DNA of 64,000 bases from Moniliella sp. 'wahieum'. Its lineage: Eukaryota. The DNA is taken from contig RSEE01000003.1 of NCBI GenBank assembly GCA_003971905.1, forward strand, positions 1,116,001 through 1,180,000, written 5' to 3'. Positions 5,154-62,730 of this stretch are shown here, one piece after another. Both the position numbers and the translations under genes were made by a program. The notes below the pieces were generated by a model, which was not told the origin of the DNA, made no database searches, and worked only from the letters and a program-made list of their open reading frames with translations. Numbering within the stretch: the first letter of the stretch is position 1; each line of letters begins with the position of its first letter.

Positions 5154-7840
<2,687 letters not shown>

Positions 7841-8699
7841 TCAGTACCCCGTGCCGTGTGCTGCGTGCTGCGTGCTGCCGTCTGCCGCTTGTCCAGTGCA
7901 GGAGCAGGACGCATGACGGCGACGCGTGACGAGATGGGCGGTGGCCTGGTGGGCGCCCTGGGGCTCCCCATTCCGGGCCGGTGACTCGTACCCGTCCGTG
8001 CCTTGGGGCGCAGTGGCTAGTGTGGCCCAGTGCCTAGGACTCCCGACCGAGGCGCCCTGGAGCAGGGCCGCAGCCGTGGGATGCGGTGTGGGATCGATGG
8101 GACAGAGCGAGTGCAGTGTGATAGCTACGGAAGCACCTACCAACTCCCCGTCCAGATGAGCAACATTTCATTATTAATCCAGGCGGCGACAAGGGACCAG
8201 TGCCCCAGACGGAGGGTGAGGCGTGACACGCGTGACAGAGGAGGGCTAGTGGCAAACGGGTCCTCTTCGAGCGCGTCACACGTCATGCGTCACTAGCACT
8301 CCTTAGAGCTTGGCACGTCCGATTGAACTCTGCACGCAGAGCCCCCCCCGCGCCCTGGTCCTGGCCTGGGGCACGGCGCTGCTCTTGCGTCTGCGACATG
8401 CACAGTGACCAGGTGGCTTGCGACAGGGCTTGCTGTTGGCCGCAGACACGCCATGCCAGCTCCTGTTCTATGCACAGGCCACGCAGACCGACTGCTCAGG
8501 CGCTCAGACCGAGCTCTCAGATCTCAGACGGAGCACGGGAACCGACTGGCTGTTCCTGCGTGCGCTGAGCGGCTCAGCGCTGCTGAATGGCTGAAGCTTG
8601 AACCAGTCGAACATGGAATACTGCACCAGAGCTGCGCTGGCAGGGCCCTCGCCCTTATTCAGGTGGGGATTGCGGCTTTGGAGGCCGGTGGCTACTGGC

Positions 8700-11650
8700 G
8701 CGTGCATGTGACATGTGACGCGTGGTGCATGATACACGATGCGTGACGTGTGATGGTGCAAGTTGGTGGCAAAGCCAGTCACGAATTAGCCGGCGCGCAG
8801 GGTAGGCGCTCATGCATCGCGTTATTTATTAGCGCTTGACGTACTGAGTAGCACGAGTACTGCGTCTGTGTTGAGTATGTGAGTACTCAGGCTCAGGGTG
8901 TTCTTGTGAGTAAATAAGTACTGAGTTTTTTTGGCTGGCTCAGTACTCAGTATCTCTTGAGTAACTAGTAACTAGTAACTAGTAACTAGTAACTAGTAAC
9001 GCGTAACGCGTAACGCGAGTCCAGTGCGTGACTGAATGCACACCTGCGACTTGGAGCTTGGGATGCCGGATGTGTGATGTCTGCATGATGTCTCCGATCA
9101 TTGGTGATCAATGCTTGCGCTTGAACCAGCACGTTTATTTGCACCCTCGGTGCCGCGGGCCAAGTTCTAAATGTGTAGCCTGTGTAGCGTGCAGCCTTGG
9201 AGCTTGGAGCTTGGAGCCTCTTGTAGTATAGCTTGTTTATTATTTCCGATTTTAACGCGTAACGCGCATCGTTTAACGTTTGCTGTTTAACGTTTAGGCT
9301 TTGCGCTAAGCCGCTAAGCGCTAAACGCATATAGTGCTTAGGCTAAGCTCAACGCCTCCCGGTTACCGCTTCCCGGTTCCCCGGGAAAATGGACCGCTCT
9401 TCAGTCTCATTGGTTTCATATTTCAGTCCCGGATCCCAGACCCTACACCGTCTGGCCCTAAGCTGTTGCAGCCGATGGAGCGCGGTGCCTGCATTGGATC
9501 CCTGCACCTCGCGGGGCCGGAGCCAACTGTCATGCGTTGCATCATGGCAACTGTTTACTGTAGCCTGAGTTATGCAGACGCCATCACTAGCATTTGTCAC
9601 TTGTTACTATGTCGCGTGCCCACTCGTCCCGCCGGCTTTTGCCAGGCCCGGACGGGGGCGTGAAAAGCAATTAACTTGACGCTAACGTGCTGACGGGATT
9701 ATGAGCCCCTGTGCCGCTCTTCGGCCTGAATATCTGAATCCTGAATAGTGACTAGCACTGATGACTAGGTGAGTGACTAGTGACTGAACCAACCAAGCGC
9801 CAAAAGGACATCCTGCATCCAATCCAAACCTGTGGCAACTATCCAACCCATCCTTCGGAGCAGGAAGATCATCGATCATCATTCACCGGTCACCGGTCAC
9901 CGGTCACTGTGGCACAGGTACCCCCGGCATCACGAGCTTCACGCATTACCCGTTGAGCTTTACCAAGCTGTATACCAGGTGCACCAGTGCTGTACCATCA
10001 GGTTGTAGCGGCCAAGGTGTACCTGGCAATTGGAATAGCCGTGGGGTAGACAGAAACATGGAACGAGAATCGGACCGGCGAGAGGGCGGGCCGCTGGTTA
10101 TTGACCGCTCCTTTCGGTCCTGTTCCGCCTCTGCTCCCCCCCCCCAACCGCCCCTGTTTGCCCCCCTGTGGCAGCCCGCCGCCCTTGTGAGCGAAAGCCC
10201 GCGCGCATCTCCTCTACCGCGTCCTACACCATGCATCATGCATCACCGGTCACCAGAATGAGTTACTGGGGTGGTCTCGTGGAAGGTAGCATAGCGTTGA
10301 ATGATGAAACGTTGAACGTAACGTTGAATGTCTGACAAGAATGGGAATTCGAACCCACGCCCCCAAGTTTGGAGCTACAAGCTGCTACAGCCGGCTAACG
10401 TATGTATCGGCGCTAGCTTGGACCACTGGTACTGAGTATACCGGGAGTACACTGAGCACGTACTGAGTACTGATCGATGATCAATGATCGGTGACGTCTG
10501 CATCATGCATCATGCGTCACGCGTCAGTGCGTCAGCACATCTGCATGTCAGATCTCAGACTGCAGGGTCCGTCAGGGTCTTGCCAGGTAGCACCGGAGGT
10601 ATCGGGTTGTGCAAAGGCTGGAGCAGGCTAGAGCAGGCTGGAGCAGGTAGGAGTCGGCTGCGCTGGCGTCGCCTGGCCGCCTGAGGGCCTGGTCCGGCTA
10701 CATGCAGATGCAGGTCGGATTCTCAGAATTCAGATGGTCAGCCGGTCAGATGTCGGAGCTCATGCGCTCATGCACGTACCATGCACCGAAGCAACTGATA
10801 CAGATGATCGATGGTCGATGGTCGATGAAGCTGCCGTAGCAGTGCTGTAGCCTGCAGAAGATGCTGCAGCTCCGCCGGCCCGATGTCGGGCAAAGCGGGA
10901 TACCGGACGTGTGAGATGTGACACGTGACATGGAATGTGATGCAATGCATGACGGCATAGCGTGACATGTGATGCACGTGATGTACGATACCACGCGTGA
11001 CATGTGACGTGCGGCGTGAGTGCAATCAGCATCACATGTCACAGGGACTAGCGACTTCTGACTCTAGCTACTAATAGTGCCTAGTGACTGACTAGCTAGT
11101 GACTAACCACAGTGACCGGAGTGACTAGTGACTAGTGACTAGTGACCTAGTGACCGGAGTAGCTAGTAGTGGTCCAAGCTTGAATTTTGAAGCACAACAT
11201 TGTCGCGCAGGCTGTAACCACATTATATTCACAGCCAAGCAACAAGCCGCCTAGAAAGCGCTGCTTAGGCTAAGCACTCAGTACGTCCAGTCACTATTCC
11301 TAGAGTGACTGTCGGGGCTTGTGAAAACAAGGGGCAGTCACTAGTCACTAGTCACCGGGTCAGATGGCGGGTGACGTAATGTTGGGGTTTATACGCCTGA
11401 GCCTCACCGGCACCTCAGATCCCTCAGACGACTAGAATGCGAAGAGAAGTAACTAGTAACAAGGGAAGCAAAGAATGCGTTGGTAGAGAGGAGGAATCAT
11501 CACTCAGGTTAATCAGGATCGGCGAAGAGCGAAGAGCAACTATAGTGATAGTGAGCCCCAGGCCTGATTAGTTCCTGATTAGCGCTTAGCTACTGTGACG
11601 CGTGACAGGTGGCAGTATAATTCTGAACATTGAACGTTGAACGTTCAAGG
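8700..11650. repeat. Dense field of 7-bp-period quasi-palindromic arrays (TNA + 4-bp palindrome)
   Basis: Examples: (TAACTAG)5(TAACGCG)3 at 8962-9017; (TCACCGG)3 at 9883-9905; TGCA-TCA-TGCA-TCA-CCGG-TCA at 10232-10252; (TGACTAG)3 at ~11122-11144; TCA-CTAG-TCA-CTAG-TCA-CCGG at 11338-11358; TGA-ACGT-TGA-ACGT-TCA at 11631-11647. Confidence 0.9.
10333..10427 (-). pseudogene. Degenerate tRNA-Leu-like sequence
   Basis: Minus strand reads AGTGGTCCAAG..GCGCC (A-box/D-arm like), then a disrupted anticodon region, a long variable-arm-like stem CTCCAA-AC-TTGGGG, and GCGTGGGTTCGAATTCCCATTCTTGTCA (T-arm/B-box plus 3' acceptor strand). No matching 5' acceptor strand is visible. Confidence 0.6.
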
Positions 11651-11878
11651 TGAACATTTAAGTTGAGCGTTGGTGTGAAGGGCGGAATGGGTGGGAGGGT
11701 TAGGCGGAGTTTCCATCACGTGACCATCTGGACCGGACCGGCCGGCCCAGCGCGGAGCGGCTCGGCTGGGCGCTTGGGGTTGCTGTGCTTTCGCCCCAAC
11801 CTGCCCGCGGCCCGCTTCCACTCGAGTAGGGCCTGGTGCGCGCATCCCCACCCCCGCCTCGCCGTCCGCACCCCCAGC

Positions 11879-14800
11879 ATGAGTGCCGGCTTCAACGCCA
11901 TTTCCACCGTCCTCAACCACCCCACTCGTCGGGCCCACCCCATCGACCCCCACTCGTCTCGCTACCCCGCCCTTCTTTTCCCCGCGCTCCCTCCGGCCGA
12001 CACCCTCGTCCCCCCCGCTGCCCCCCCATTGACGCCGAGGCATATGCGCGTGAGACTAGGCCGGTGTGGGGGAAATTGCGACGCCCCCCTGCCGCCCGTG
12101 GCTCTGGGCCTGGGGCGGCTGGCACTGGCACTGGCGTTGTGAGCGAGGAGGAAGACGTGGCGCCGCTGGAATCGGTGCCTTCGGTCTTCTTTGACTTGGA
12201 CTATTCCCTGTCCGACCCAAGGTACTTCGAGCAGGTCTTTGAGGTCAGTGCCGCTGTCCCCTTTCCACCGATGGCACTTCGTCCCTTGCCGAGGCCGCCC
12301 AAGAGGCCTTGACAGCATCCCTCCCCTGCTGGGCGAGAAACTGTCGTTTTATTCGGATGTGATCGAACAGCATCTCGTCACTGCCTTGTCTGAGCGGTCG
12401 GAAGCGATCCTGAATGCCGCCTCTTCTCTGCAAACCCTCACCGAGGCTGGACGCCAATGTGCTTCCGACACAGCTGCGCTCCAGGGCAGCATGCGCGCTT
12501 TGGACCAGGACATCACTCATACCGGCACCTCTCTCATCCTACACCAGCACCGCCGCCGCCGACTTCAACTGCTACTGTCCACGCTAGAACGCATCCAAAC
12601 GGTTGTTAGCCAATCCGAAACAGTCGAACAGCTTGCTCAGCAACGTAGATGGTTGGATGCGTTGCAGACTGCCAAGCAAGTGCGTCTGTCACTCCAACAG
12701 CCTCTTGTCCTTTCAGCCTCAGCCGGCACAGAGGATCAGCAAGAGGAAAAGCAGCTCAAACTTTCCGACGTTGCCTCCCTGGCAGCATTGTCAACTCGCC
12801 TGGACGGAAGTGCAACACAAACCTCTGAGGCTCTCTGTGGCGAGCTGGAAACGGCATTGAGAGACTGGTTCACAAAGAGCATACTGATCTCCTCGTTTCT
12901 GAGGCAGATGACCGCGCGACACCCGGCACGCTTCTCAGGTACGACTGAGCAATTACGTTCTCTGCGAGCCCGGCGAGCCCGCACCTTGCGTTCCTCCATC
13001 GCTTTGGCTGCCGAGCAGTTGGCCGAGGCTACAGCGGAGGCTACACCCTTGCCGGGCACAGAGGCCTCCCCTGTCGTCACTGCTTCTCTGATCCAAGGTC
13101 CTGATTCACTTCCCTCGGCGGGGTCTCCGACCCGTGTCAGAAGGAGATGAAAACCCACCTCAAGTTGCAGGACGAGGGGATGCTGGAGACCATACGGCCC
13201 TTGCTTGCTGCTCTGGCACAAGCCAATTCCCTTGGTTTGGTCCCTCGTACCCTAGAGCAGGCTACCTTGGGAGCTGTCCAGCAAATTGCCCCGGTTGCTT
13301 GGACCGCTGCCCAGTTCCCAGAGGAAGCGATTCCTGGCCTTGTTCAGCTCGTCAATCCAGAGCCCGGAGTGAATAAACCTCCTGAGGCGGCCATCGCCCA
13401 CCTTCGCTCGTTGTCTGCCCCCGAGTTTGTGGAGCGAACCCACGTTTACCTAGAGGCCGTGTTAGACGTGCTTCATGCTTCTGACCAGGCCCTCGTCATT
13501 CTTTCGCAATTGCCCGAAATGATCCAGCTGCCTGCGGACGACGAACGCATAACCCAAGCTCGTACAAATGCGTGTGGCAGTTCACACCTCGGCCGCACGT
13601 ATCTTTTCCGCGCGGGGTCTTGTGCTGGGATCGCCACAGCCCGCACCGACCCTATCCGATCTTGAGGACCCGGCGAACGTCTGGGCTGACCCAGAACTGA
13701 CCGCTTTCCTTCCCTCTTTCCAACTGGGATGGGGCTTCATGCTGCGTAGCCGCTTGCCTTCTCACTTGGCAAGCAGTAATAGCGGGTCCAGTAACGGTCC
13801 AGTGGCGGATCCGATGTGCTGCGCTCCACCCTTCTGCGTTTGGCACGCGAGTTTGTGGGTGTGGTACATGCCCGCAGGTTGTCGGTTGCAGCGGCTGCTG
13901 TGGACACGGAGAAGTGGAGTGCGAAATCGGTGCCAGCCCCAGTTCAAGCACTTGTGGAGACGATGTTGCTTGGGGCAACGGAGGACCCAGCGCAGCTGTC
14001 GGTGTTGTGTCAGACTGGTCAAGGATCTATCCAGCAACCGTTGCAAAATGGCAAGACAACCACCCAACGCGATCCCAAGACACTTGAGATCGAGGGCCAC
14101 CGGTACTTTGTCGTGGGGGCGACCTTGATCGTGCTCCCCCAGTTGGGGCGGTACTGTCGCCTGGTTGTCAACCTGCCCTTGATCTGTGTCGAAGTTCTTG
14201 CCCGTCTCGTCGAGTTTCTCAAACAATTTAACAGCCGCGTGTGCCAGCTGGTCCTGGGTGCAGGTGCGCTCCGCAGTGCCGGTCTGACCAATATCAACGC
14301 TCGCCATTTGGCGCTGGCTGACAGTCTCTCAGTGCTGTGATGGGCCTACTGCCCTACATTCGCGAGATGGTGCGACGCCACCTGCCAAAGCGGATGAAGC
14401 TGATGCTCACTGAGTTCGATCGTCTGCGACAGGACTACACTGATCATCGGATGGAGATCCAAACTAAACTCGTCTCCATCCTTCAGGAACGAATTGCTGT
14501 TCATTCACGCTCTCTCCGGGTACGTTTCTTCCTTCAGGTAGGGTTTGATGTTCTGAATGCTGACTGCTGTCTCGATACAGGTTCTGAATTGGGAAAAAGC
14601 TGCTGAGGCGGAGCGTCAGTTCCGACTTGGACTCAAACAAAAAGCGGCCAATACACCTCAAGATGAAGAAACCCCACAGGAGGAAGGGAGCGGGAATGAG
14701 AAGGGCGAGGAGGAACCTCCTCAGCTGAGTCCCCTAGCTGGACTTCTCAAGGATAGCTCAACGTTATCGACCATTCTAAGTCGCTATCTCCCCACTGGTA

Positions 14801-17758
14801 CGCTCGAGTCGATCATGAGGCGGACGGGTGCTTCCATTGATTTGCACCTTACCGACACAGTGCGGGCGATCGACTGGGACGCATTCGAAGCGCCCCCGCC
14901 AACAAGGTCGAATGGTATGGGTTCGGTCCGATCCGGCATGTCCTTGCCTTCTCGGGAATTTGTACGGCCCGAGGTACCTCCACGTGATGCAATGCACGCC
15001 GACTTGGCTCGCTTTGTCGCGCATCTTCGCAAGCTGAAGGGGATGAGCGCGTGGGATCCATGCAACTTGCTCAAGCTTCAAGACAACATCCTAGCCCCCC
15101 GCCCCCCTCCCGTGGCAACACCCCGGACATCCATGACGACCAGCCGGCGTCCGTTTCGATGGCGCGTGAATCGCCTACTCAGGCAACCCCGATCGATAAA
15201 CCCGCTGCTCCCGCCAATTCTACGTCCTCAGCCCCCATTCACTCGGTCCTTTCTGAATCAGGTACCCGGGTGTTCGGGCGATACGGAAGGACTCTGAGCC
15301 TAACGTTTGGGCTCCCCAGCTCCCCTAATCCCATCGGCAGCAAACTATGCGCCACCGCCTGTCCAGGCACGTCCACCAGCCCCAACGATCAAGTACCAAC
15401 CCCGGCAGCGGCCACCACAGAGGCGCAGTACCGCTTCCCCTGCTCCGAGCCCTCCCCCGACGGACTTATTGAGCCCCTCGATCGACCCAACGCTGCGTCG
15501 ACATGGATCGGTGGGCTCGTCAATGGATCGCGCTTTCTCGCCTGCCGGTTCTCGCCCCCCAACTTCGCCCTTGTCACCAGGAACGGGACGGGAGTATCCG
15601 ATCACCACCTCCTACATCCCTCGCCGTTCCAGTTCGAGCATGGCCAATTCCCAACACGCCCATCTACGTGCACCGTCGGAGCCTGTGCGTTCCAGCCGCT
15701 CCCCCCTTGCTTCCCCCGCCCCGACACCTTCCTCGCCCAGTTCCAGCCCGCCCCGATCGACAGTGTCGACGTTTGAGTCGGCCGTGCACGCACCTTTGCT
15801 TACCCGCCCAGAACCGATCAGAGCCACAACAGTGCCCGTGACGGACGACGAAGACGATGCACAACCGATCTTGCTTTCTCGCAGAGGGCCACCGGTCCGT
15901 GTCACCGCGTCCCCATCCCTGGGAGGTAGCATGCCCACCATGCCCACCAGCGACGACTCGGACGATGACATCCCACTTGCTCATCGCGCAGCTACGATCG
16001 CCAACCGTTCTTCTTACTCACCGGCTCCGAAACCTTTGCCGCATCAGGCCCCAACTCCAATGATGCAGACGATCATTACTGAGAGCCCGGCGGGGGCGGA
16101 CCAGGATGTGCCTCCCCTGGCCCTCGGCCCGAAGTGACAGCCCCTGCCCCAGAACCAGAATCGGCTCCAGTGCCAGCTCCAGTGCAAGCTTCAGTGCAAG
16201 TGCAAGCTCCGGAAGATACACCTACCTCCACTGGGCCGACTGATGTGCCCGCCTTGACGGATACTGCTGGTCCCACAACCCTGCCCATATCAGTGCCTGC
16301 TTCTGTTCCAGCACCCAATGTGGTTGAAGCCCCAGCGCCTGATTCACATGCGGCTCCTACAGAAGCGGTGGAGCCTGCGGTCGCTCCTGCACCCACAACC
16401 ATACCCTCATTGGCTACAGGTTCCACTCAGGCTCCTGCCCCGGCTCCTGTTTCAACAACATCCGTGTCAACGCCTTTGACGGCCACACCAGAAAAGCAGC
16501 GCAAGCGTCTTTCGCTCAAGAGCGTCTCGCCGAAGCCACGCGAAAGCGGACTTCGTTAGGCAAGACACCACTATCCCCTATCGTTACCAGCCCTACCACC
16601 TTGCAGAACTCGTCCTCTCCTGTCAGATCTACTCCCGTTTCATCTCCAATGGCCAAAACCGCAACCACTGCCACTCCTGCCTCCACGGCCGTGGAGGATG
16701 TTTCAGTGCCCATCGCGCAAACCCGCAAATCTACGATGGAGGGGACAGCCAGGTTTCTAAGGGAGACCTGGGGAGAATGGTACGAAGGGCAAATCTGGCA
16801 CCCCCGTCGCTTCACCCACGCTTGATGTTGAGAAGAGGGAGCACCGCGACGGAGAAGGGTACGGAAGAAAGGGTTGACCTCACCACAGCCAAGGAAAAGG
16901 AGACTGCTATCACAGCTGTTCCCTCGGTCGGTGTTGCTGAGACTGTGGCAGAGTCTGTTCCTGGGCAAGAAAAGGTTGTCATGCAGCAACCTTCCTCCCC
17001 GGCCCAAGAGAGTTGTCGCATCGCACCCAATCCTGAATCCAATTCGCCCTCACGTTCCGGTCCTGAGGCGCTATCCGAGGCTACTGCATCCTACTCTGAT
17101 TCTCCGCACCCCACTTCTTCAAAGGCAATTCCAGAGGGCGTGGTCACAACGCCAGACTCCGCGTTACCTGCTGCAACGTCTGCGGAGCAACCCGAGAAAC
17201 GAGTCCCTGCGGAGGAGTCCGATCTAGAGGCCCCAAAAGAAACGATGGAGACGGCTTCTACCGATTTGGTGGTCGCGCCAGTCAACCCTCAGCCCGACAA
17301 GGAGCCAGCCAAATCTGAGCCCGACAAGGAAACTACAAGTCCTGATACCCGGACGAGCCTGTCGGATCGTGCCGAAGCACGGCAGGATGATGTGGAACAA
17401 GCAGGTGTGGCTAAGCCCGAAAACAAGATAATCCAACCCAGCACCTCGCCTCCATTGGATTCAACCGCATCGGATCCGCCCCTGGTTTACCCTCTCAAGC
17501 GGGGGAAGGCGACGCGGCTGGGCCGGAAAAGAGCACTGTGTCGTCCATCACAGCTGATCTGATCACCTCAGACACAACGCCTTCTTCCCTGCCCACGCCT
17601 GAGCCTGAGCCCGAATCTCTCGTTACTAGTGAGGACCAAGTCGAAAATGTCGACCCAGATACACAGGTCGCCTCTTCCCCGGCCTTACCAAGGAGGAGAA
17701 GGAACGCGAGAAACGTCGCCGTAAAAAGAAAGCGCAACGGCAGCGCAAGAAAAAGTAA
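11879..17758 (+). CDS. VPS54: GARP complex subunit Vps54 with long Pro/Ser/Thr/Glu-rich C-terminal extension
   Basis: GFNAISTVLNHP, LESVPSVFF..LSDPRYF, EKLSFYSDVIEQHL, and the Vps54 domain EFLKQFNSRVCQLVLGAGALRSAGLTNINARHLALA..EFDRLRQDYTDHRMEIQTKLVSI. Intron ~14520-14580. Many frameshifts; tail inferred to end at KKKAQRQRKKK* (17758). Confidence 0.88.
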
Positions 17759-18943: not shown

Positions 18944-18978
18944 TGCATCATGCATCATGCATCATGCATCACTAGTCA
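18944..18978. repeat. Heptamer array (TGCATCA)4-CTAG-TCA in the APS3/nucleoporin divergent promoter
   Basis: tgcatcatgcatcatgcatcatgcatcactagtca read directly. Confidence 0.9.
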
Positions 18979-26387: not shown

Positions 26388-26540
26388 TATAGGTAATTAA
26401 AACGTCGGTACCACACAACAGTTCTTCGCCGGCAGTCAAGGTTCAGCGTGGTGGATGCCTGCTTTGGATTGGCATCAATAAGATATGAATACGTTGAGTA
26501 CTCAGACTGAGGATTCATATACATGTACAGGAGAAGGACT

Positions 26541-26671
26541 TTGTTTTGCTTTTTGCTTTGCTTTGCTTTGCTTTGCTTTGCTTTGCTTTGCTTTGCTTTG
26601 CTTTGCTTTGCTTTGCTTTGCTTTGCTTTGCTTTGCTTGCTTTGCTTTGCTTTGCTTTGCTTTGCTTTGCT
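26541..26671. repeat. (GCTTT/AAAGC)n pentanucleotide microsatellite, ~25 units
   Basis: Read directly; gives the spurious CFALL/KAKQS ORFs. Confidence 0.97.
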
Positions 26672-28884: not shown

Positions 28885-29728
28885 CAGGGCGGGTTTGTCC
28901 AGGGGGGGGGTATATGGGGGGGGTCAGGAATGCGGTGGTGTTGGGCAATGCGATGGTAATGGGCGACCTGGGCTGCAGTTGGTCCTCGGTGAGAGAAGGC
29001 CGGTGGCGGCGAATGTGATTTTGGATTGCATCAGGTTCTGGTGGTTATCGATTATCACCTGCTAATGCGCTGATAAAGTCATCGATAAAGCGATGAGCGT
29101 TGGCCGATGAGCGATCGCGGTGATCGATGATCGGGCGAGCGATCGCGTATGGCATGCTATCAAGTCCTCTCAGCCTCTGCTGGGATGGTCGACAGCCGAT
29201 AGGAGCGCCGCCAGGAAATCTGCCCTCGTCCGCCCGCCTCTGTCCTGGTGCCTGCCCTGGTCTGGCGATCGAGTAAGCCTCGGGTGCACGTGCCAGGCCT
29301 GCCAGACCTCAGGCTGGCATATTGATGTGACCAGATGCCGATGCCAAGCGAAACGGCAAGGAAGAGCGCTGTAGTACAGTAGGTCAAGTAGGCCATACTA
29401 GGGATTGATTGCTGGTGAGCGATAGAAGAGAGCAGCAGAGAGGGAGGAGGGAGTGGAAGAGAGGAAGACCAAGCTACGATTGCCGAAACTTCGGGGAGGA
29501 GACACGTCGGACTGCAAAACTTTCGCCCGCGGAGGGAACCGTAGCGGAGCGGGCGGATTAGGGTGGAAGTGGTTGGGAGCGCCAGAGTCCGGCTATGCTC
29601 TTGGCACACTGCAGTAGTGTTCCAACAATATGCCCGCAAGCATATCCAGGGCTATCCAACAAGTCACAAGTCTACGACGACTGGGAAAAGAGAGTAGGAA
29701 AAGATGCAGATGGAATATAAGTGCCTCC

Positions 29729-33686: not shown

Positions 33687-34890
33687 TTTACTGTAGTGGT
33701 ACACGGAAGCAGACCAACACGCTTCGTCAGCTGCTTCGCTGTATACAGTGAGAGAAGGGCGAGAGCAGGAGGAGATGTGCTGTATGCAGAGTTTGAAGCT
33801 CTCTCTCTGGATAGAAGCGTGGCGGATTCCTTGCGGCGAGAACCCATAGGAAAAAACACGGTCAAAGTAAAGCAGTTTCTAGCTCCGTAATGCGGCGGGT
33901 GGCATTACGGGTAGTGTCGCCGCTACGAGACCCAGACAGGTGGGGCAGGGGCACCGGGGCCGTTGCCCCCTCTGGAGGGAGAGCGGCGGGCGACAGCGGC
34001 GGGCAGCGGCGCTGCAGACGAGATGCAGGCCGGGGACAGGCTTGCCGGGGGATGGCTCTTCGCCTCCATCTCCGCTGTGGCAGCCGAAGGTGCGCTGCTG
34101 CCTGCTGCTGTCGCCCACCGCCTCCTTGCGCTCCTGCCCTCCGCCCGGCCACCACACCAGAGGACACGTCCCCTGCCTCGTACGTCTGCCCCCCCTCGTA
34201 CGTCTGCCCCCCCTCGTGCGTCTGCCCCCCTCGTGCGTCTGCCCCCCCTCGTGCGTATCTCCCCTGTCCCCCGCCCGCGCTCGTCGCCACCACCACCCCC
34301 TCCCATCCGCATCCCCCCCTCTGACCCCATCATGCCCCTAGACGTCCCCGCACCCCCCCTCCCGTTCCCACCATGGACGACGGCTCGCACAGTTGCCCGT
34401 GTTGCAACTACGACCCCCAGCAGGGCTATTACAGCTATGACAACATGCACCCTGGCTACTACAGCTATGACAACATGCCCCCTTTCTGCCAACAGCACAT
34501 GTACTGCCAGCACATGTACTACCACCAACAACAGATGTACAACAACAGCTTGATGGCCGCTGGCGGCGGCGCCAACCAGGCCGCGCCCCACCCCCCCCCA
34601 ACACCATGGACGACGGCTCGCGGAGTTACCGGTCCAAACTACGACCCCAGCAGGGCTACGGCTATGACAACATGCCCCGTGATCACTACAGCCATGACAA
34701 CATGCGCCATGGCGGCCAGCACATGTACGTCCATCAGCAGATTTACAACAACATCAACATTGTCACCCCCTCCACAATGGCCGCTGGTGGGGGTTCCGTA
34801 GCGTCGTCCGCCGCTTCCTCGGACCCTAACCGTCTTGGACCGTCGGGGCTCGATTCGTTGCCACAGAACGACGGGGGAACAAAAAAATGA
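33687..34890 (+). pseudogene. Partial duplicate of the upstream region and 5' coding end of the HMG-box gene
   Basis: 33687-33850 matches 35626-35787. 33983-34830 matches 36502-37078. The MDDGS..NYDPQQGY..NM..QHMY..QQMYNN segment occurs twice (34373, 34606). No HMG boxes follow. Confidence 0.8.
34178..34258. repeat. ~18-bp tandem repeat CTCGT(A/G)CGTCTGCCCCC(C) x4
   Basis: Read directly; an expansion of a unit present about twice at 36700-36735. Confidence 0.85.
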
Positions 34891-35625: not shown

Positions 35626-35787
35626 TTACTGTAGTGGTACGGAAGCAGACTACGCTTCGTCAGCTGCTTCGCTGTATGCAGTGGGAGAGAAGGGCGAGAG
35701 AAGGAGGAGATGTGCTGTTGGCGGAATTTGAATCTCTCCTCTCTGGATAGAAGCGAGGCGGATTCCTTGCGGTGAGAATCCATAGGG
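35626..35787 (+). repeat. Second copy of the ~160-bp block at 33687-33850
   Basis: Shared TTTACTGTAGTGGTAC..GGAAGCAGAC..ACGCTTCGTCAGCTGCTTCGCTGTAT..GAGAAGGGCGAGAG..GGAGGAGATGTGCTGT..CTCTGGATAGAAGCG.GGCGGATTCCTTGCGG.GAGAA.CCATAGG. Confidence 0.9.
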
Positions 35788-36809
35788 CAGCAAGGACAGT
35801 CAGTTTGACCGGCTCATGAGTCTGCCCCTTTTGGATGGGTGGGTGCGGCTGGCCACTCTCCTCGTCCAGTGCGCCCAGCAAGTGCAAGTTGGGTCTGACG
35901 TATTCGCTTGAACTCTCATCTCAGTTTGCACCTACACCCAGTCTAAGTTTTGGTAATACGGCAGTGCTCCTCACGTTCGTGCGCTCCATGGGAAACGGAT
36001 GGTCTGAATGATGAGCTGAGAACGCAGAGGCGATGGTACAGCTGGTATAGGTGGATTTGGTGTGCAAGCGGGAGGTGATGGTTGGCGATGCACGTGATGA
36101 CCATCAAACCGCGTGTGCTGCGCCAGGCAGAAGCTACAGAGGGGTGTGGGTGACGCGGTGACGGGGCGGTGTTACACCAGTGTTACATTCTTCTGCCGCG
36201 TGTAGATCGGTTTCTCCCGCACTGGCCCAGCGATGGATGGTGCCTGATGCATGACCATCCATGGCCGTGTTTGGGCCGAGTAGCATCCAACGCTGCCCAT
36301 CGCCCCCCCCGCCCAGACGCATGGCCTCGCGCGGCGCAGGCGCAGTGTCGGAACCCCGCGCGTATTCCGCTGCAGGGTCACGTCAGCAAGTTCAGCGCTG
36401 AGCACTGGCCCCATGCTTTAAGAGGCACACGGGCAGTGTTAATGCTGGGTGACCCAGACGCGTGGTGCGGTGGCACCCGGGCAGTGTGCACTGCAGGGGG
36501 CGCGGCGGGCGACGGCGGCGGGCAGCGGCACTGCGGACGAGATGCAGGCCGGGGGCAGGCTGGGCGGCGGCTGGCTCTACGCCTCCATCTCCCGCTGTGG
36601 CTGCCGAAAGTGCGCTGCCTGCTGTCGCCCACCGCCTCCCTTGCGCTCCTGCCCTCCGCCCGGCCACCACACCAGAGGACACGTCGCCTGCCCCGTGCTG
36701 CCCCCGCGTCTGCCCCCCTCGCCCCCCTCGTGCGTATCTCCCCTGCCCCCTGCCCGCGCTCGTCGCCGCCACCACCCCCTCCCACCCGCATCCCCCCCCT
36801 GACCCCATC

Positions 36810-38097
36810 ATGCCCCCGCAGACGTCCCCCGCGCTAACCGTTCCCACAATGGACGACGGCTCGCAGAGTTACCCGTTCAACTACGACCCCCAGCAGGGCT
36901 ACAGCTATGGCAACATGCCCCTGGCTACCAGCACATGTACTATCAGCAGATGTACAACAACTTCAACATGGTCACCCCCTCCATGATGGCCGCGGCGGCG
37001 CCAACCAGGCCGCGCCCCAGGCTCCCCCAACGCCGCCGTGCCTGGTTCCGTCGCGTCATCTGCTGCTCCCTCGGACCCCGCCGCGGCTGCTGCTGCTGCT
37101 GCCGCACAACACTACATGCCTTACGGCCACCCGCAGTACTTTGCCGGAATGATGCCCCCGGGCATGTCACCTACGAGACGGCCGCCGCTTCCGCCGCCGC
37201 TGCTGGCTCGAAACACGCCAAGATCAAGGATGCCATGGGTGGTCTGGATGAGCGCAAGTTCAAAAAGAAGGAGATCCTGTCGTCAAGAAGCCTGCGCGGC
37301 CGCACGTGCGGCCGCCAAAGCAAGCGCCGTCGGCCTGGCAGATTTACTTCAACGAGTTGCCGATATGCGCGCCAAGAACCCGTCGGAACGATTGAACGTG
37401 TCCCATGTCGCCCGTGGTGCTGGGGAGCGGTACAACGCGTTGCCGAGGAGGAGAAGCGTCGGTACTACGAAGAATCGCTTCGCCGCAAGGCGCAGTGGGA
37501 AGCCGACGTGCAGGCTTGGCTTGAGAAGTTGTCGCCCGAGGACATCAAGCTGGAAAATGCGTACCGCACCCAGCAGCGCAAGTCGGGCAAGTCGCGCAAG
37601 TCGAACTTGAAGGATCCGCATGCGCCCAAGAAACCGCTTTCGGCTTACTTTTTGTTCCTTCGTTCCATTCGCGCCTCGCCCGAGATGACCAAGGAGGGGT
37701 TTAATGACGAGAGTGAAACAACGAAACAAAGTGTCCTGGCTGCTACCAAGTGGCGCGAGCTCGACGAAGACCGGAAACAGCCCTACCTTCTCAAGGCGGA
37801 GCAGGACAAGCAGCGGTACGAGGAGGCGCGCAAGATGTACGACTCAGCAACGTCGGTGCCTGGTGTAGACGCGTTGGTTGCGCACGAGCAGGCGCAACAG
37901 GCAGGCAAGGCAGCGGCCAAGAAGTTTGCCGAGACCAACCCGCAGATCCAAGAGATTATTGCGCAAGGCCGTGTCCCTCGGCGCTGACGTTTGATGTGGA
38001 CGAGGAAGATGTCCAGTTGGCTGCACAGGCCGCGACGCACAAGGACCATGGGCGTCACGGTCGCAAGTTGGCCAGTACGAAGCTGAATGAATGTTGA
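36810..38097 (+). CDS. Two-box HMG protein resembling Coprinopsis Exp1, with Y/Q/N-rich N-terminus
   Basis: Box 1 PPKQAPSAWQIYF..LNVSHVARGAGERYNAL; linker PEDIKLENAYRTQQRKSGKSRKSNLKD; box 2 PHAPKKPLSAYFLFLRSIR..ETTKQSVLAATKWREL..PYLLKAEQDKQRYEEARKMY; frameshifted. Confidence 0.9.
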
Positions 38098-49317: not shown

Positions 49318-49729
49318 TGTGTTGGAACGGGCGATGGCGAAGACGGCGGTTCGTGTGAGTCTGGTGTTGGCGTGGACGTTGAGCAGGATGGCCGACGCCT
49401 CACGTCGTCCGCGTGAAGGTCACGTGATCATACCCGCTGTCTGTGCTTCGACGCGTCAAATTTCAAAGCGCATCAACCACACAAGGTATCGATCGCGTTT
49501 GAAAACTGCTGTGGGAGTGTACAATGGGTACGCCACTGGTACGCCTGCACACTTGAAGCTTGAAGGTTGACTTCCAACTGGGGGATTGAAGCGTGAAGCT
49601 TGAAGCTTGAAGTATCCTTGCACCAAGGTATCCACCACTATCTCTTCGGTCTTGAGGGTGCATATCAGCTAGCGCCGTAAGCAAAATATTAGCACCCTCT
49701 TGTACTCCCCTTTTTGAGAGTAAACACAG

Positions 49730-51170: not shown

Positions 51171-51758
51171 GCCCGTGGCACACCTGCAAGTCCGTGACTG
51201 GGACTGTGGCCAGCGCAGAAAGCAAGATGGTGTGGGAAGGAACAAGCCCCTGCCAGAACCGCGCATCGCACAGGGGCGGCGGTGCACAGGCGCGGCGCGG
51301 CGTGGCGCAGGAGGCACAGGAGGCACCCAGGCAGTAGTTCAGTGTCTATGGATGCAACCCAAAGCCCCCAGACCTAAAACCTAAGACCTAAGGCCTAGCA
51401 GCTAGTAGTAACTAGTAACTAGCAGCTAGTAGCCAGTATGGCCTAGGCCCAAAGGGACGCCACAGGCGTAGCCTCCAAGATACACGAAGCTTGAAGCCCC
51501 CCGTCCAGGCTGAGCCGCCCTCGTCCACACTATTGACGTGACGCGTGAGGCCTGAGGATGGGATACAACACTATTGGATCACTAGCCACTCGTCTTGTCA
51601 CCACCTTGTGTGGCCAGAGTCGGGCATGAGCACTGCGTGGGCATCAAGAGGATGCGCTAAATAGGGGGTAGGCAACCCTCCATTCGATTCTTGAAAATGT
51701 ATTTCGAACAATGCCGGTCGCGGTAAGGGTAGGGAGTGAGGTGGTGGGAGGCTAGGGA

Positions 51759-58025: not shown

Positions 58026-61000
58026 CAGGGAATCCTTGCGTGCTCCCGCCTGCTGATACCGGAATTGGACGAGCCACCGCTGAGCCACTGGCGAACCCAC
58101 GTAGTCATCTGCGAGCCCCTGCGAAAACACGGGTTCATCTGAACGAATGTGACCTTCTAGACCACCCGAGGCACACTGTGCCAGATCGAGGCGAGGCCAT
58201 TTCAGTATGAGACAGCGGGGGGGGCTCTCAGGTGGCGAGTGCGGTGGGCGACGAACGGTGGACAACGTTGGGTTGCTGGTACTCATCGATCATCGATCAT
58301 CACTGTGGGTCTGTGGATAGGCGATGACTGTGACAGAGATACGAGTTCGCAGTAGCATGTGTCGGCGACCTTGGTGGGGAGCTCAGTGCCCCCGTGCCCC
58401 CACCAACGGTGCTCACCCACACCGACTCGATCATCGCAAACACCACGGCCTGAGGCAGAGCAGGCCATAGTCCTGCATAGCCTGGCCAACGAGCGCCGAA
58501 TGACTAATCCCAGCAATGGCTGAGGGCCTGAGCGCCTGGGTGCCAGCACACGTTGGATGTCCAGGAACGCCGTTTCTGGTTCTGTCCCGAAGGACGAAGA
58601 TGATCCGGCGAAGACACCCAAGACTACGCTAGTCCCGCGCCACGGATCAATATAGCTATCGCGCAAGCCTCAGGAACATCCCTGGACGAGGCGTGGTTGG
58701 TCGACACTGTTATCGTGCGGGGGTGTGTTATCCATATGCTATCGCGCCGATCACATCCATCACCACCTGTTTGCATGATTGGCTCGGTGACAGTGACCTG
58801 TGACCTCGTCACCCGAGTGTGGCCGTCGCACAGCGCCTGTGGGAATGTGCTGCTCTGCACCATATGGCCCGACGGTTTCTCATCTTTTCATTTCAAACGA
58901 TTCTTGGCACAGCAACGCTCAGCGCAGTAGTTCGGTTGGAACCGTGGTGGCTTATCTTCGGGAAAACAATGCCGGCGCGGCTGCCATGCCTCAGCGCCTC
59001 GTCCTGCCCGGCTGGGCGGCTGAGCTGAGCTTCGGAGCACGCGCGCCACAGCCTGCCGTAGTGCATAGCAGGCCATCGCCTGACGCGCTGACGCCAGCCT
59101 AGGTGATGCTCAGGCCTGCTCAGGCTCGACGAGCGCTGCGGTTGAGCCTGATTGAGCGCGTCCCAGATCCCACCAGGTCCCAACGCGCAGCGTGCTGGCT
59201 CTGGCCATCAATGCATCACATGGCATATGCCCGCAGCACCACCACATGGCTGTTCGGATGCCACGGCAAGGCCACACCGGTCACGCGGAAAAGGACCGCA
59301 TGGTTCTACGGTTCGTCCAATTTGTCCGCATTCCCCACCTTTAAGCTTTGGCGGTGATATATGGACGAGGGGCAGACACGCTTCTCACTAGCGCAGAGGA
59401 GGCAGAAGGACCCACACGTTACTTCTATATTGCCGCAGGCCCTTCGTCACAGAGATATGCCGAAGCACTGTCACATTGCATTGTCACATGTGGACAACAG
59501 ACGCATGACCCTGTTTCGGAAATTGGACACGCTGTTACAGGACGGCGGAGTCGAAAATGGGGGTGTATGGCAACGGCACTGTTGCAACAAGCTACAGTTT
59601 GTTGCAGTTCGCCACATTATCGTCGGCAATCCGCGCAGACGCAGAAAGCTAGGGGGGAACATACATTCTGAGTATGGAAGGCGTGGACAACGACGGCTTC
59701 CAGCACACCGCTCCACCCACAGGGGGTAAAGAGGCGGGGGCGTAGCGGGGTCGCGAAAAAGTCGCACATGGATATCCAGTTAAGCGGTACCCTCGATGAA
59801 TTAGTGATCCTCAGGCCTCACGCGAATATACCGCGTACCGGCCAGACCCCCATATGGCCGATGTGGTACCAGTCTCGGCGTACACAGCCTGCATGTGCAT
59901 GTCTGCGGGTCCCGCCAGGGTCACGCCGGTCAGGCCGGCCACGGCAGATCCCGGCAGGCCTCGGCGCAATTTTCTATGTATACCGCACAGTACTGGGCAG
60001 TACTCAGGTACACAGTGTGTCCTCAGTATTCCATGTGTTTAATCTATCACCGTTCAGCGTGATCATCGACCAACTGTAGAGTACTCTGTGCATACGGGCT
60101 GCCCCACTATATCTCTCAGAAAGAAGTTTCCGAATCGCAGATAGTGTGGAGGAGACCGCGACTCATACGTGCGAGATAACTCGATTAGCACCCGAATTGT
60201 GTGTTTGTCAAGCGTCAAACGTTTCGGTATCTTGCTCAAAAAAACGTGTCTTTTGCCACCCTCTTATAGATCAGAGAACCATTATTGCACCCCAGCGTTT
60301 TCTCATTCTGGTTTATCTCGATATGATAGTTGTGGGTCGCAGTACTCTATCCCTCGCGTCCACAGCGAGTTGCTGAAGCTGCCAGTTGCGAGCCGCGAAA
60401 AGTGAAGCCGTTCCAGGTCGTATTGAACGTTAAACGTTCCTGAATGTTTTGAGCTCTCGAGCGCGCTCAGCCTGAGCGCTCCCACCGCAGCATTCAACCA
60501 GCGCTCAACGCAACGTGCTCTGGAATAAGGCGTTCCTCCAAACGAGGGCTTCAGATCCAGGTCTGATGGTTGTGGTGCATTATAAGATGGAGGTTTTTCA
60601 TTTAACTCAAAAGGCTACCTCTCGTCTAAATCCCTCTGCTTGGGCGCTCGACCGCCGTTCCACACCGTCCACCGTCCACCGTCCCACCGTCCCACCGTCC
60701 ACAGTTTCACCGTGCACTGATCCATCGTCCACAGTATGGTTGGCTGTAAAAGTCATTGGTAGTATGGGCAACAAGTAATACAGAGGTGCGATATATACAC
60801 CACACAGCGTGTGACGTTTGCTGATATGCGAACCAAAAATTGGGAGACCGCAGTGGAGTCGCCAGCAGATCGGGACTCTCCTCTGGCTCTCGCCATAGAC
60901 TTCCAAAAAGCGAATGAGCCCGAATGAATATGAGAATGAGAGCATGGTAGAGACATGCGAGCGACAATGAACCACATTGCATCTCCAATGAGAAATCATG

Positions 61001-62368
61001 TTTTGGCAATGTTGGTGGCAAAGTACCCGTTAAGTCGTCATGACCCGAGGAAACAGTGGCCATTGATAGCGTCCGTCGAATACTTGGAGTTCTTGTCTTT
61101 GCTTTCCGCTTGCTCCAGCAGGCGATGTAGATTCATTTCTGCTGTGGCGTTCCTCACATGTCACACGAGCGCGTCAGGTCCCATCACTCGGCAGTCCGTA
61201 TAATATGCCTGGGCTTTATCCCGTCCGTCTGGGGTATCGTCCTTCCTCACATATCGGCAATAGAAATAGACCAAAAAAGACTATAAGTAGTATATATACA
61301 TGTGAAGCACAACACTCCCCACAGTACATATGCCAACGTGTGTTGTATTGCACACAAAAAGTCTGAACGAGAAGTGTATAGATGTTAATCTTTCTCGGCA
61401 TCAACGGTCTAGGCAAGAGCTCAAAAATCCCTGTGGCTTCCCACAATGATCCGTCTGGTTTTTCGCCACGGTCGTTCTTTGCGTGTCTCTGTGCTTGCGC
61501 GCATCCTTCACACTCTTGTTGTTTTCTCTGTGGATCTCTGAGATAACCAAGTATAATAGTTGATGGCAATAATAATTCGCACATGGGCGCCATATTTTCT
61601 TGTACACATGACCTCTCTCTCTGTGTTATTGTATCACCACAATGGTACTAGCCCTCTGGTTCCCTTCAGTGCATATTGGTTCCGATGTTGATCCTACACG
61701 GAGAGCATTGCAGGAATAATCTCTAGCCTCTTCTGCATAGTTCATGCGCGCAATGCACAGCCTATGCTCTCCGTGCTGTGGCCTTCCACGCCGAGAGGTA
61801 CTAATATAGTGCATCTCTTCTATATTATGGCGCATACTTGTGTTGAGTGCATTCCACTTAAGGCCTACCTGGCGCACGATCGGACTTGAGTCCACAGTAG
61901 AGTAACTACCGTTCCATCTATAGTCCACCGTTTCATAATAGGTCATCGTATGATCAAGAAGGGGGTGCACCAAACGTGGCGCATGGGCCTGTGAGATAGA
62001 AGTGCTATAGGGTTCTTGCTCGGCCCTCAAGTTGATCGCAGTGACGCTCTCTTAGTCGGGCGGAGGGGTTCCTTTCGCAAGCATCAACACAGCGCACCCC
62101 CTTCCCCTGCTCGCTCCATCTCTCTGCTCTGTGTGTCTCCTGTCTCCTTATTCCTCAGACGTTGCTTGAAAAGATGTGGCTCACCGTTTTGCTTCCACAG
62201 GCATCACGTCTTGTTTGAAGGCTCCGCCTCCGTTTAGGAGATGTCCCCGAGTGTTCGCAAATCGTACTCTACTTGTAGTAGTATTGGCATGCTTTGCATT
62301 TGAAACCCGGCGGTTTCTACACCCTGAGAGAAGAGCCCCTTATCCCTCTGTCATGTTATACCCCGCGG

Positions 62369-62392
62369 TTACCGGTTATGCATGATGCATGA
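62369..62392. repeat. Heptamer array TTA-CCGG-TTA-TGCA-TGA-TGCA-TGA
   Basis: ttaccggttatgcatgatgcatga read directly. Confidence 0.85.
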
Positions 62393-62730
62393 TGGCATAG
62401 ATCGTGAGACCTGAGGAACAGAATTCATGGCGGCCCCAACGCCGCTAGCGCCCGCCGCGCAGACCGAGCACCGAGCGCGCGCGCTGAGTTAGTTGTCTTG
62501 GGGCCACTGTGGTAGCTCTGTAAATTATCTAATCGTCCCCGCCTTGCGGCAAGCATTGTGGAAATGAAAGTATGAACTTGGTGATTCGATTATTATCGCC
62601 GCACAATGCGGCGGTCTCTCCTGTAGATATAGCTATCGTGGCCAGGCACTCTCCCCACCCAAAACAGCAATGCGCCCCCAGGCTTTTAGCAAGCTATCTC
62701 TTTTGCGCTCGCCCACCACCCGCGACCATC

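Follow-up and report, generated by a model that had tools for sequence, protein, structure and literature searches.

The birth of a microsatellite is usually ascribed to a chance proto-repeat that slippage then extends. The subject here is a two-motif heptamer array at positions 8960-9017 of a 64-kb stretch of DNA (positions 1,116,001 to 1,180,000 of contig RSEE01000003.1; the whole stretch of 64,000 nucleotides is called the window), which, on the best explanation that we can offer, is one of dozens of products in the window of a process that adds seven bases at sites centred on TnA (T, any base, A). Among described systems, compound microsatellites share with it perfect head-to-tail short units, two motifs that abut in register, and a copy number presumably driven by slippage. 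They differ in that half of the window's perfect heptamer tracts that are 15 or more bases long (17/34, against about 11% by chance) have a unit consisting of a 6-base palindrome plus one base, in that TnA is constant, and in that whole palindromes are exchanged rather than drifting; moreover, the passages of PMC7441554 on hairpin-forming repeats describe these as normally depleted in eukaryotes.

Flank hairpins followed by end-joining footprints are known for hAT, Transib, RAG1 and the Mutator-type element Muta1, according to the discussion of excision in PMC5499845. The P-nucleotide footprints left by hAT, Transib and Muta1, like the coding joints of V(D)J recombination, resemble the products in the window in that a direct target repeat is joined by the reverse complement of its flank, and the same discussion has a hairpin opened a couple of bases off its tip to give a 4-base palindrome (PMC5499845). 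They are unlike the window in that no element is found there, the implied target duplication is 7 base pairs long and centred on TnA, and the scars are uniform and reiterate into arrays. Known target duplications are 8 base pairs for hAT, 5 for Transib and 8-10 for Mutator-type elements. PIF/Harbinger-Tourist elements, with a 3-base-pair duplication of TTA/TAA type, also have a T-any-A target with a free middle base, although the account in PMC4561436 has excision as reportedly precise, both duplications being left only when mismatched. A 3-base-pair duplication alone gives no flank-templated 4-base filler, and the repeat in the window extends to 5 bases. The target of maize PIF is an extended palindrome.

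Over-represented bacterial heptanucleotide repeats, as portrayed for Xanthomonas and Nostoc in part of PMC4692102, have period 7, are intergenic and sometimes occur as inverted pairs, of which the window has a counterpart at 11121-11140 and 11336-11355; in contrast to the arrays of the window they are prokaryotic, G-rich and quadruplex-forming, and their units are not TnA plus a palindrome (PMC4692102, same part). The gene content of the window is fungal, the array at 8960-9017 is direct, and there is one inverted pair nearby. Template-switch insertions, whether by template switching at stalled forks (FoSTeS), by break-induced replication that microhomology mediates (MMBIR) or by quasi-palindrome correction, are likewise short inserts that are the reverse complement of nearby DNA (the cases given in the pertinent section of PMC3638132), but have no fixed length or context, whereas every step in the window is one of 7 bases and every centre is TnA. 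Searches of open-access papers and of bioRxiv turned up no account of palindromic heptamer arrays centred on TnA in fungi.

The array and a second, related one comprise the following features.

8960-9000: left array, AGTAACT in 5.9 copies, equivalent to (TAA+CTAG)5 or to ACTAGT+A; the tract begins exactly at AG (phase l=2)
8995-9001: boundary unit AGTAACG, the putative ancestral (seed) site, with non-complementary arms AG and CG
8996-9017: right array, GTAACGC in 3.1 copies, equivalent to (TAA+CGCG)3 or to ACGCGT+A; it ends in a full CGCG, 2 bases past the end expected from the model set out below
9253-9266: second, separate (TAA+CGCG)2 array, 236 bases downstream of the main array

Read directly, the sequence is AGTAACT five times (8960-8994), AGTAACG once (8995-9001), CGTAACG twice (9002-9015) and a final CG (9016-9017); it can be parsed alternatively as (TAACTAG)5, occupying 8962-8996, and (TAACGCG)3, occupying 8997-9017. 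Tandem Repeats Finder gave the two arrays as listed, each with 100% matches, and an exact-repeat scan concurred in finding two perfect period-7 arrays whose overlap is the shared GTAAC, so that the in-register two-motif array reported at 8962-9017 by the initial annotation proved exact by all three routes. As in a compound microsatellite, two perfect short-unit tandem arrays abut, and both units are a 6-base palindrome plus A (ACTAGT+A, then ACGCGT+A). The hybrid unit AGTAACG that had been placed in the middle of the array is there in the frame used for that description, but in the frame TAA+CTAG and TAA+CGCG there is no hybrid, and the 4-base palindrome alone changes. Units TAACTAG and TAACGCG differ solely in their adjacent central dinucleotide (TA to GC), with no intermediate unit within the array. 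The earlier contention that point mutation would need paired compensatory changes fails here, both changes being adjacent; a self-complementary dinucleotide can undergo 9 double changes, of which, on a simple count, 3 leave it self-complementary. As an argument against point mutation it is therefore weak for this array alone, because the motifs differ in one adjacent dinucleotide. The array also folds, as hairpin-prone repeats do, into hairpins with TAA triloops (-13.2 kcal/mol against -8.4±1.9 for shuffled sequences, z -2.5), and 4 of 200 shuffles fold as well.

The array is not a chance occurrence. Arrays of period 7 stand out in the window: 13 perfect arrays of at least three copies have period 7, compared with none of period 6 and one of period 8. 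Some of the counts that follow were read by hand from listings and are marked as such. Among the 17 palindromic heptamer tracts, 14 fit A....T, which amounts to TnA with a 4-base palindrome (by hand). One intergenic region, referred to as the island, is 7-periodic as a whole.

7801-11700: 7-periodic island filling the spacer between two genes; bases seven positions apart are identical in 36% of cases, other lags giving about 25-27%

Within the island there are 120 odd palindromes of 7 bases, against 63.7±7.3 in shuffles. A general excess of 6-base palindromes was considered and rejected: the window has 948 where about 1000 are expected, and it is only in the island and at TnA centres that an excess occurs.

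The specificity for TnA is evident from pairs of such triplets. Where two TnA stand at lag 7, a palindromic 4-mer is enclosed in 78 of 184 cases (baseline 5.9%), whereas the corresponding counts for other centres are 5/142 (AnT), 18/459 (GnC) and 15/357 (CnG). Loci of the form TnA-palindrome-TnA number 54, 29 of them outside the island, against 5.6±1.7 in order-2 Markov shuffles, and those in which both TnA have the same middle base number 44 against 1.7±1.2, in keeping with the direct repeat of target bases that would flank the scar in an excision footprint; AnT, CnG and GnC loci are at or below their own shuffles. A hairpin-driven repeat would be expected to be indifferent to the bases at its centre, yet the enrichment occurs at TnA centres only. 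The length of the step is just as restricted, since the only enriched filler is a 4-base palindrome (lag 7, 66 against 1.6; lag 5, 9 against 6.7; lag 9, none; lag 11, one; lag 13, nothing comparable), and at least nine different 4-base palindromes are used. TnA-centred odd palindromes as such are enriched at lengths of 5, 7, 9 and 11 bases (at 11 bases, 43 against 11.4±2.8). In the metagenome contigs with (ACTAGT+N) arrays that serve as a control below, taken together, TnA is not linked to palindromes (59/1312).

Most of the smallest products are 12-mers, [TnAxy][y'x'][TnAxy], in which two inverted bases link the copies of a 5-base direct repeat (primes denote complements). The middle base of both TnA is identical in 31 of 41 isolated sites and complementary in 5 (by hand), and the repeat is therefore direct, not inverted. 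Among the 31 sites with identical middle bases, periodicity at lag 7 typically reaches exactly 2 bases to one side (right in 13/31, left in 8/31), from which the 12-mer follows. The general 12-mer [abcde][e'd'][abcde], counted on both strands, occurs 136 times against 9.0±3.5 expected, and 31 times in isolation against 4.3±2.2, with 16 of the 31 isolated copies beginning with TnA. Isolated 5-mer repeats at lag 7 number 97; in 29 of them the two bases of the spacer are the reverse complement of an adjacent end of the repeat, where chance would give about 12, an effect absent at other repeat and spacer lengths; as in P-nucleotide footprints, the junction bases are the reverse complement of the adjoining flank. 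Of the 28 tracts of palindromic type whose length is exactly 12 bases, 17 show the phase predicted, or its mirror (p=4e-4 against 2/7); the figures in two metagenome control sets are 5/17 and 9/45. Tract length modulo 7 was uninformative because the 12-base threshold dominates the distribution. Representative products are listed.

15071-15082, plus strand: isolated 12-mer TCAAG CT TCAAG (like forms at 29045, 38346, 49456, 53594 and 61154)
49594-49612, plus strand: 19-base tract TGAAG(CT TGAAG)2, of length 5+7n and with the predicted ends (like form at 58283-58301)

This signature was found across the window independently of the array at 8960-9017, to which the same rule can be applied. Acting on AG-TAA-CG, it adds CG+TAACG to TAACG on the top strand and AG+TTACT to TTACT on the bottom strand, the latter being AGTAA+CT+AGTAA when read on top. 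The output, AGTAACT units, then AGTAACG, then CGTAACG units, is the order observed, with the unchanged seed in the centre, and the left tract begins at AG as predicted. Duplication with inverted, hairpin-like junctions beside an asymmetric TNA site, as the initial annotation had proposed, thus gains from the excess of 12-mers throughout the window and from their phase; it falls short at the right tract, which is 2 bases (CG) too long.

The reading that we prefer, tentatively and as something short of probable, is a staggered break centred on TnA with hairpin-type processing of the ends, like the scar of a transposon excision, which would add 7 bases per event, with copy number altered later by slippage. 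The elementary event would convert L-uv-TnA-xy-R into L-uv-TnA-xy-y'x'-TnA-xy-R: TnA and its two flanking bases would be directly repeated, with the reverse complement of the flanking pair linking the copies, to leave a 4-base palindrome between two identical TnA, while an event on the other strand would use the left arm. From the seed AG-TAA-CG, AGTAACT units would then be produced to the left and CGTAACG units to the right, with the unchanged seed between them. In the steps proposed, a staggered double-strand break across NN-TnA-NN would leave two ends that become capped as hairpins; the hairpins would be opened 2 bases off the tip, so that the last two bases of each end supply it with a 4-base palindromic 3' overhang; and on rejoining one overhang would be kept and the other lost, giving uv-TnA-xyy'x'-TnA-xy or its mirror, a net gain of 7 bases. 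Because each scar would be a new and fully symmetric NN-TnA-NN site, repeated hits would grow homogeneous arrays, whose copy number replication slippage, aided by TnA-triloop hairpins, probably alters afterwards. Such a model would explain why the period is 7, why TnA is constant, why the palindrome is templated by the flank, why the 12-mers are one-sided and why switches fall at TnA.

The switches between motifs were collected from the whole window. Different 4-base palindromes separated by TnA were found at 10 loci, and different TnA-centred odd palindromes that abut, so that the switch lies at the centre of a palindrome, at 2 loci; the base counts for both kinds of site are equal (250 and 255). 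The expectation that the boundary unit would always be left arm, TNA and right arm was borne out at the 10 switches at TnA and contradicted by the 2 at palindrome centres. Besides that in the main array, the following were among the switches noted.

8709-8722: in-register switch from TGA+CATG to TGA+CGCG
10236-10252: in-register switch from TCA+TGCA to TCA+CCGG, in which all four palindrome bases differ (inverted motif pair at 62367-62394)
10464-10480: in-register switch from TGA+GTAC to TGA+TCGA
11345-11358: in-register switch from TCA+CTAG to TCA+CCGG
18962-18978: in-register switch from TCA+TGCA (four copies) to TCA+CTAG, outside the island
51539-51555: in-register switch from TGA+CGCG to TGA+GGCC
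62369-62392: TTA+CCGG, TTA+TGCA and TGA+TGCA, a palindrome switch and then a change of the middle base

Among the 10 switches, 3 alter just the centre of the palindrome, 2 just its outer bases and 5 all four bases, where random pairing predicts 2:2:6, and the palindrome pairs look randomly matched. The 5 that change all four bases, half of the total, would each require four symmetric substitutions and have no intermediate. As a control, three in-register units on either side of the first (ACTAGT+N) array were taken at each of 122 metagenome loci, and the neighbouring variants were mostly single-substitution and non-palindromic, for example ACCAGT and ACTGGT (by hand).

Replication template switching would dispense with a site-specific enzyme: fold-back of the nascent strand on TnA triloops, by quasi-palindrome correction or in a FoSTeS-like manner, would make and perfect palindromes, and slippage would build the arrays. 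The enrichment of TnA-centred odd palindromes at all four lengths tested and the TAA triloops into which the main array folds fit this explanation, as does the documentation of short insertions in humans that create pseudo-palindromes (among the insertions treated in PMC3638132). A structure-driven process, however, should ignore which complementary pair flanks the centre, yet AnT, CnG and GnC show no excess, and its inserts should vary in length, yet enrichment is limited to the 4-base filler at lag 7. The middle base, moreover, is directly repeated (of the 41 isolated sites, 31 have it identical and 5 complementary), and the survey of eukaryotes in PMC7441554 has hairpin-forming short repeats as depleted and ACGCGT among the rarest hexamer repeats; we consider template switching unlikely. 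An ordinary compound microsatellite, in which one (TAACTAG)n unit changed from TA to GC and the variant was amplified by slippage, its palindromy being incidental, is possible for the array at 8960-9017 taken alone, where the motifs differ by two adjacent bases and a third of the double changes of TA stay self-complementary. Variants such as ACCAGT and ACTGGT are common and themselves amplified at the 122 metagenome loci, and the window has one stepwise path, at 10503 (TGCA, TGCG, CGCG). The main array is nevertheless without an intermediate unit, the variants of the control arrays are nearly all single-substitution and non-palindromic where half of the switches here change all four bases, and the TnA specificity, the isolated 12-mers and their phase are left unexplained; we consider this explanation decidedly unlikely. 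Clusters of binding sites maintained by selection in a divergent promoter, for a bZIP-like dimeric transcription factor whose targets are 7-base odd palindromes around a TnA core, would suit the position of the island between divergently oriented genes and the recurrence of words such as GTGAC and GTCAC throughout it. The sites of bZIP factors are 7-base odd palindromes. The use of so many different 4-base palindromes and the spread of 29 of the 54 loci over the window outside the island both speak against such selection, and binding predicts neither a palindrome copied from the flank nor the phase of the 12-mers; we regard it as highly improbable.

Several observations weigh against the TnA-centred break and hairpin processing as well. 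All of the evidence comes from one 64-kb window, its patterns having been recognised post hoc and set against order-1 or order-2 Markov shuffles as nulls. Both the right tract of the main array and the TAACGCG array at 9253 overshoot the model by 2 bases, although the extra CG could be due to slippage of the CG dinucleotide or to chance (1 in 16), and 15 of 24 neighbouring TnA units are non-palindromic (by hand), another point on which the boundary unit does not always conform. No transposase domain was found in 9 open reading frames (ORFs) of at least 319 amino acids, picked from a list of those of at least 200, or in 105 of 130 stop-to-stop frames of at least 150 amino acids, the 25 frames left out being mostly overlapping ones on the opposite strand or in another frame. 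Nor does the window contain an element with terminal inverted repeats and flanking TnA, or extended left-right inverted similarity beyond the arrays themselves; thus, of the mobile element that a footprint should match, neither filled sites nor terminal inverted repeats nor transposase were seen in the window. We know of no eukaryotic transposon family with a 7-base-pair target duplication centred on TnA. An exclusive 4-base filler is also more uniform than the footprints of hAT elements. PIF/Harbinger elements do duplicate a 3-base-pair site of T-any-A type, yet reportedly excise precisely (in the excision results given in PMC4561436). Two further candidates were rejected: that the palindromes are remnants of transposon ends, given the at least nine different palindromes, which match the two bases after the second TnA, and that a large element with long inverted ends spans 8592-11183, where only the heptamer arrays align.

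A more specific form of the break-and-hairpin reading is that an enzyme peculiar to the lineage, whether a host nuclease or a cut-and-paste transposase that has gone unrecognised, breaks NN-TnA-NN in this basidiomycete and leaves a fixed 7-base scar, made up of the target repeat and a 4-base palindrome taken from the flank, and that the scars, as better symmetric targets, multiply into microsatellites; this we put forward as a doubtful but conceivable step further. If true, a lineage-specific enzyme would write whole intergenic spacers. Four metagenome contigs from other organisms (L063, L004, L005 and L025; GC content 41-49%) are dense in palindromic heptamer arrays, with 23 in 4 kb of L063; their enriched centre is AnT (32/144), not TnA, and in this small sample their 12-base tracts have no phase preference. 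Such AnT-centred arrays in contigs of other eukaryotes suggest a family of enzymes with differing specificities.

The birth event of a microsatellite seems readable here as a site-specific, flank-templated insertion of 7 bases, the products of which can be counted and phased. If it operates genome-wide, it would constitute a new mutational signature in fungi and a mechanism for self-seeding repeats, and it could explain long 7-periodic spacers between genes. To our knowledge, common tools for simple sequence repeats stop at hexamers, in which case papers on fungal genomes would overlook arrays of this kind. The logic of the boundary unit would then, if true, serve to recover ancestral sites from compound arrays.

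The array at 8960-9017 lies inside a spacer of about 4 kb with a kinase ORF (minus strand) on one side and a Vps54-like gene (plus strand) on the other, the two genes being divergent.

5154-7274, minus strand: protein-kinase ORF, left flank of the spacer; an upstream ORF at 7187-7813 may be part of the same gene
12191-14337, plus strand: pieces of the Vps54-like gene, right flank of the spacer, with a possible ATG at 11879

The domains recognised in ORFs of the window are fungal (Fungal_trans, Zn2Cys6, protein kinase, Vps54, OPT, HMG box and ribosomal L11), and the OPT transporter fragment has its nearest named relatives in Tilletia and Tilletiaria (46-54% identity), with one further protein at 65%; from this domain content and these relatives, the window is read as chromosomal DNA of a basidiomycete from a poorly sampled group, probably close to Ustilaginomycotina. 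No Rfam match was obtained in the window at the gathering threshold, or in 7800-11900 at E values up to 1, and ARAGORN predicted no tRNA in the window. The sequence ggaattcgaacccacgcc at 10330-10400 resembles the end of a tRNA T-arm on the minus strand, where ARAGORN and Rfam found nothing.

Several heptamer arrays of the window are arranged in inverted pairs. The pair (GTGACTA)n at 11121-11140 and (AGTCACT)n at 11336-11355 has arms of 20 bases that are 100% complementary and 195 bases apart, with more GTGACCGG/CCGGTCAC-like symmetry beside it, and looks like a foldback unit, or one resembling a miniature inverted-repeat transposable element, whose arms are heptamer arrays. Multi-motif arrays are also inverted with respect to each other at 8709-8742 and 10499-10526 and at 9087-9112 and 10473-10498 (about 1.4-1.8 kb apart, 81-85% complementary), and the array at 8960-9017 lies between the two left-hand arms, 8709-8742 and 9087-9112. 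The succession ATGCAT+n then ACCGGT+n is found at 10227-10254 and at 62367-62394, 52 kb apart and in opposite orientation, with 89% complementarity over 28 bases.

Repeats of other kinds are present too. A (GTG)25 array at 7677-7751 is situated just upstream of the kinase frame, or in its 5' part, on the opposite strand, and a pentanucleotide array, (CTTTG)26, occupies 26539-26671 with 93% matches. A segmental duplication relates 33750-34800 to 35685-37034, the copies being about 1.9-2.5 kb apart with blocks at 88-97% identity, and includes proline- and tyrosine-rich coding repeats beside an HMG-box gene (36935-37987).

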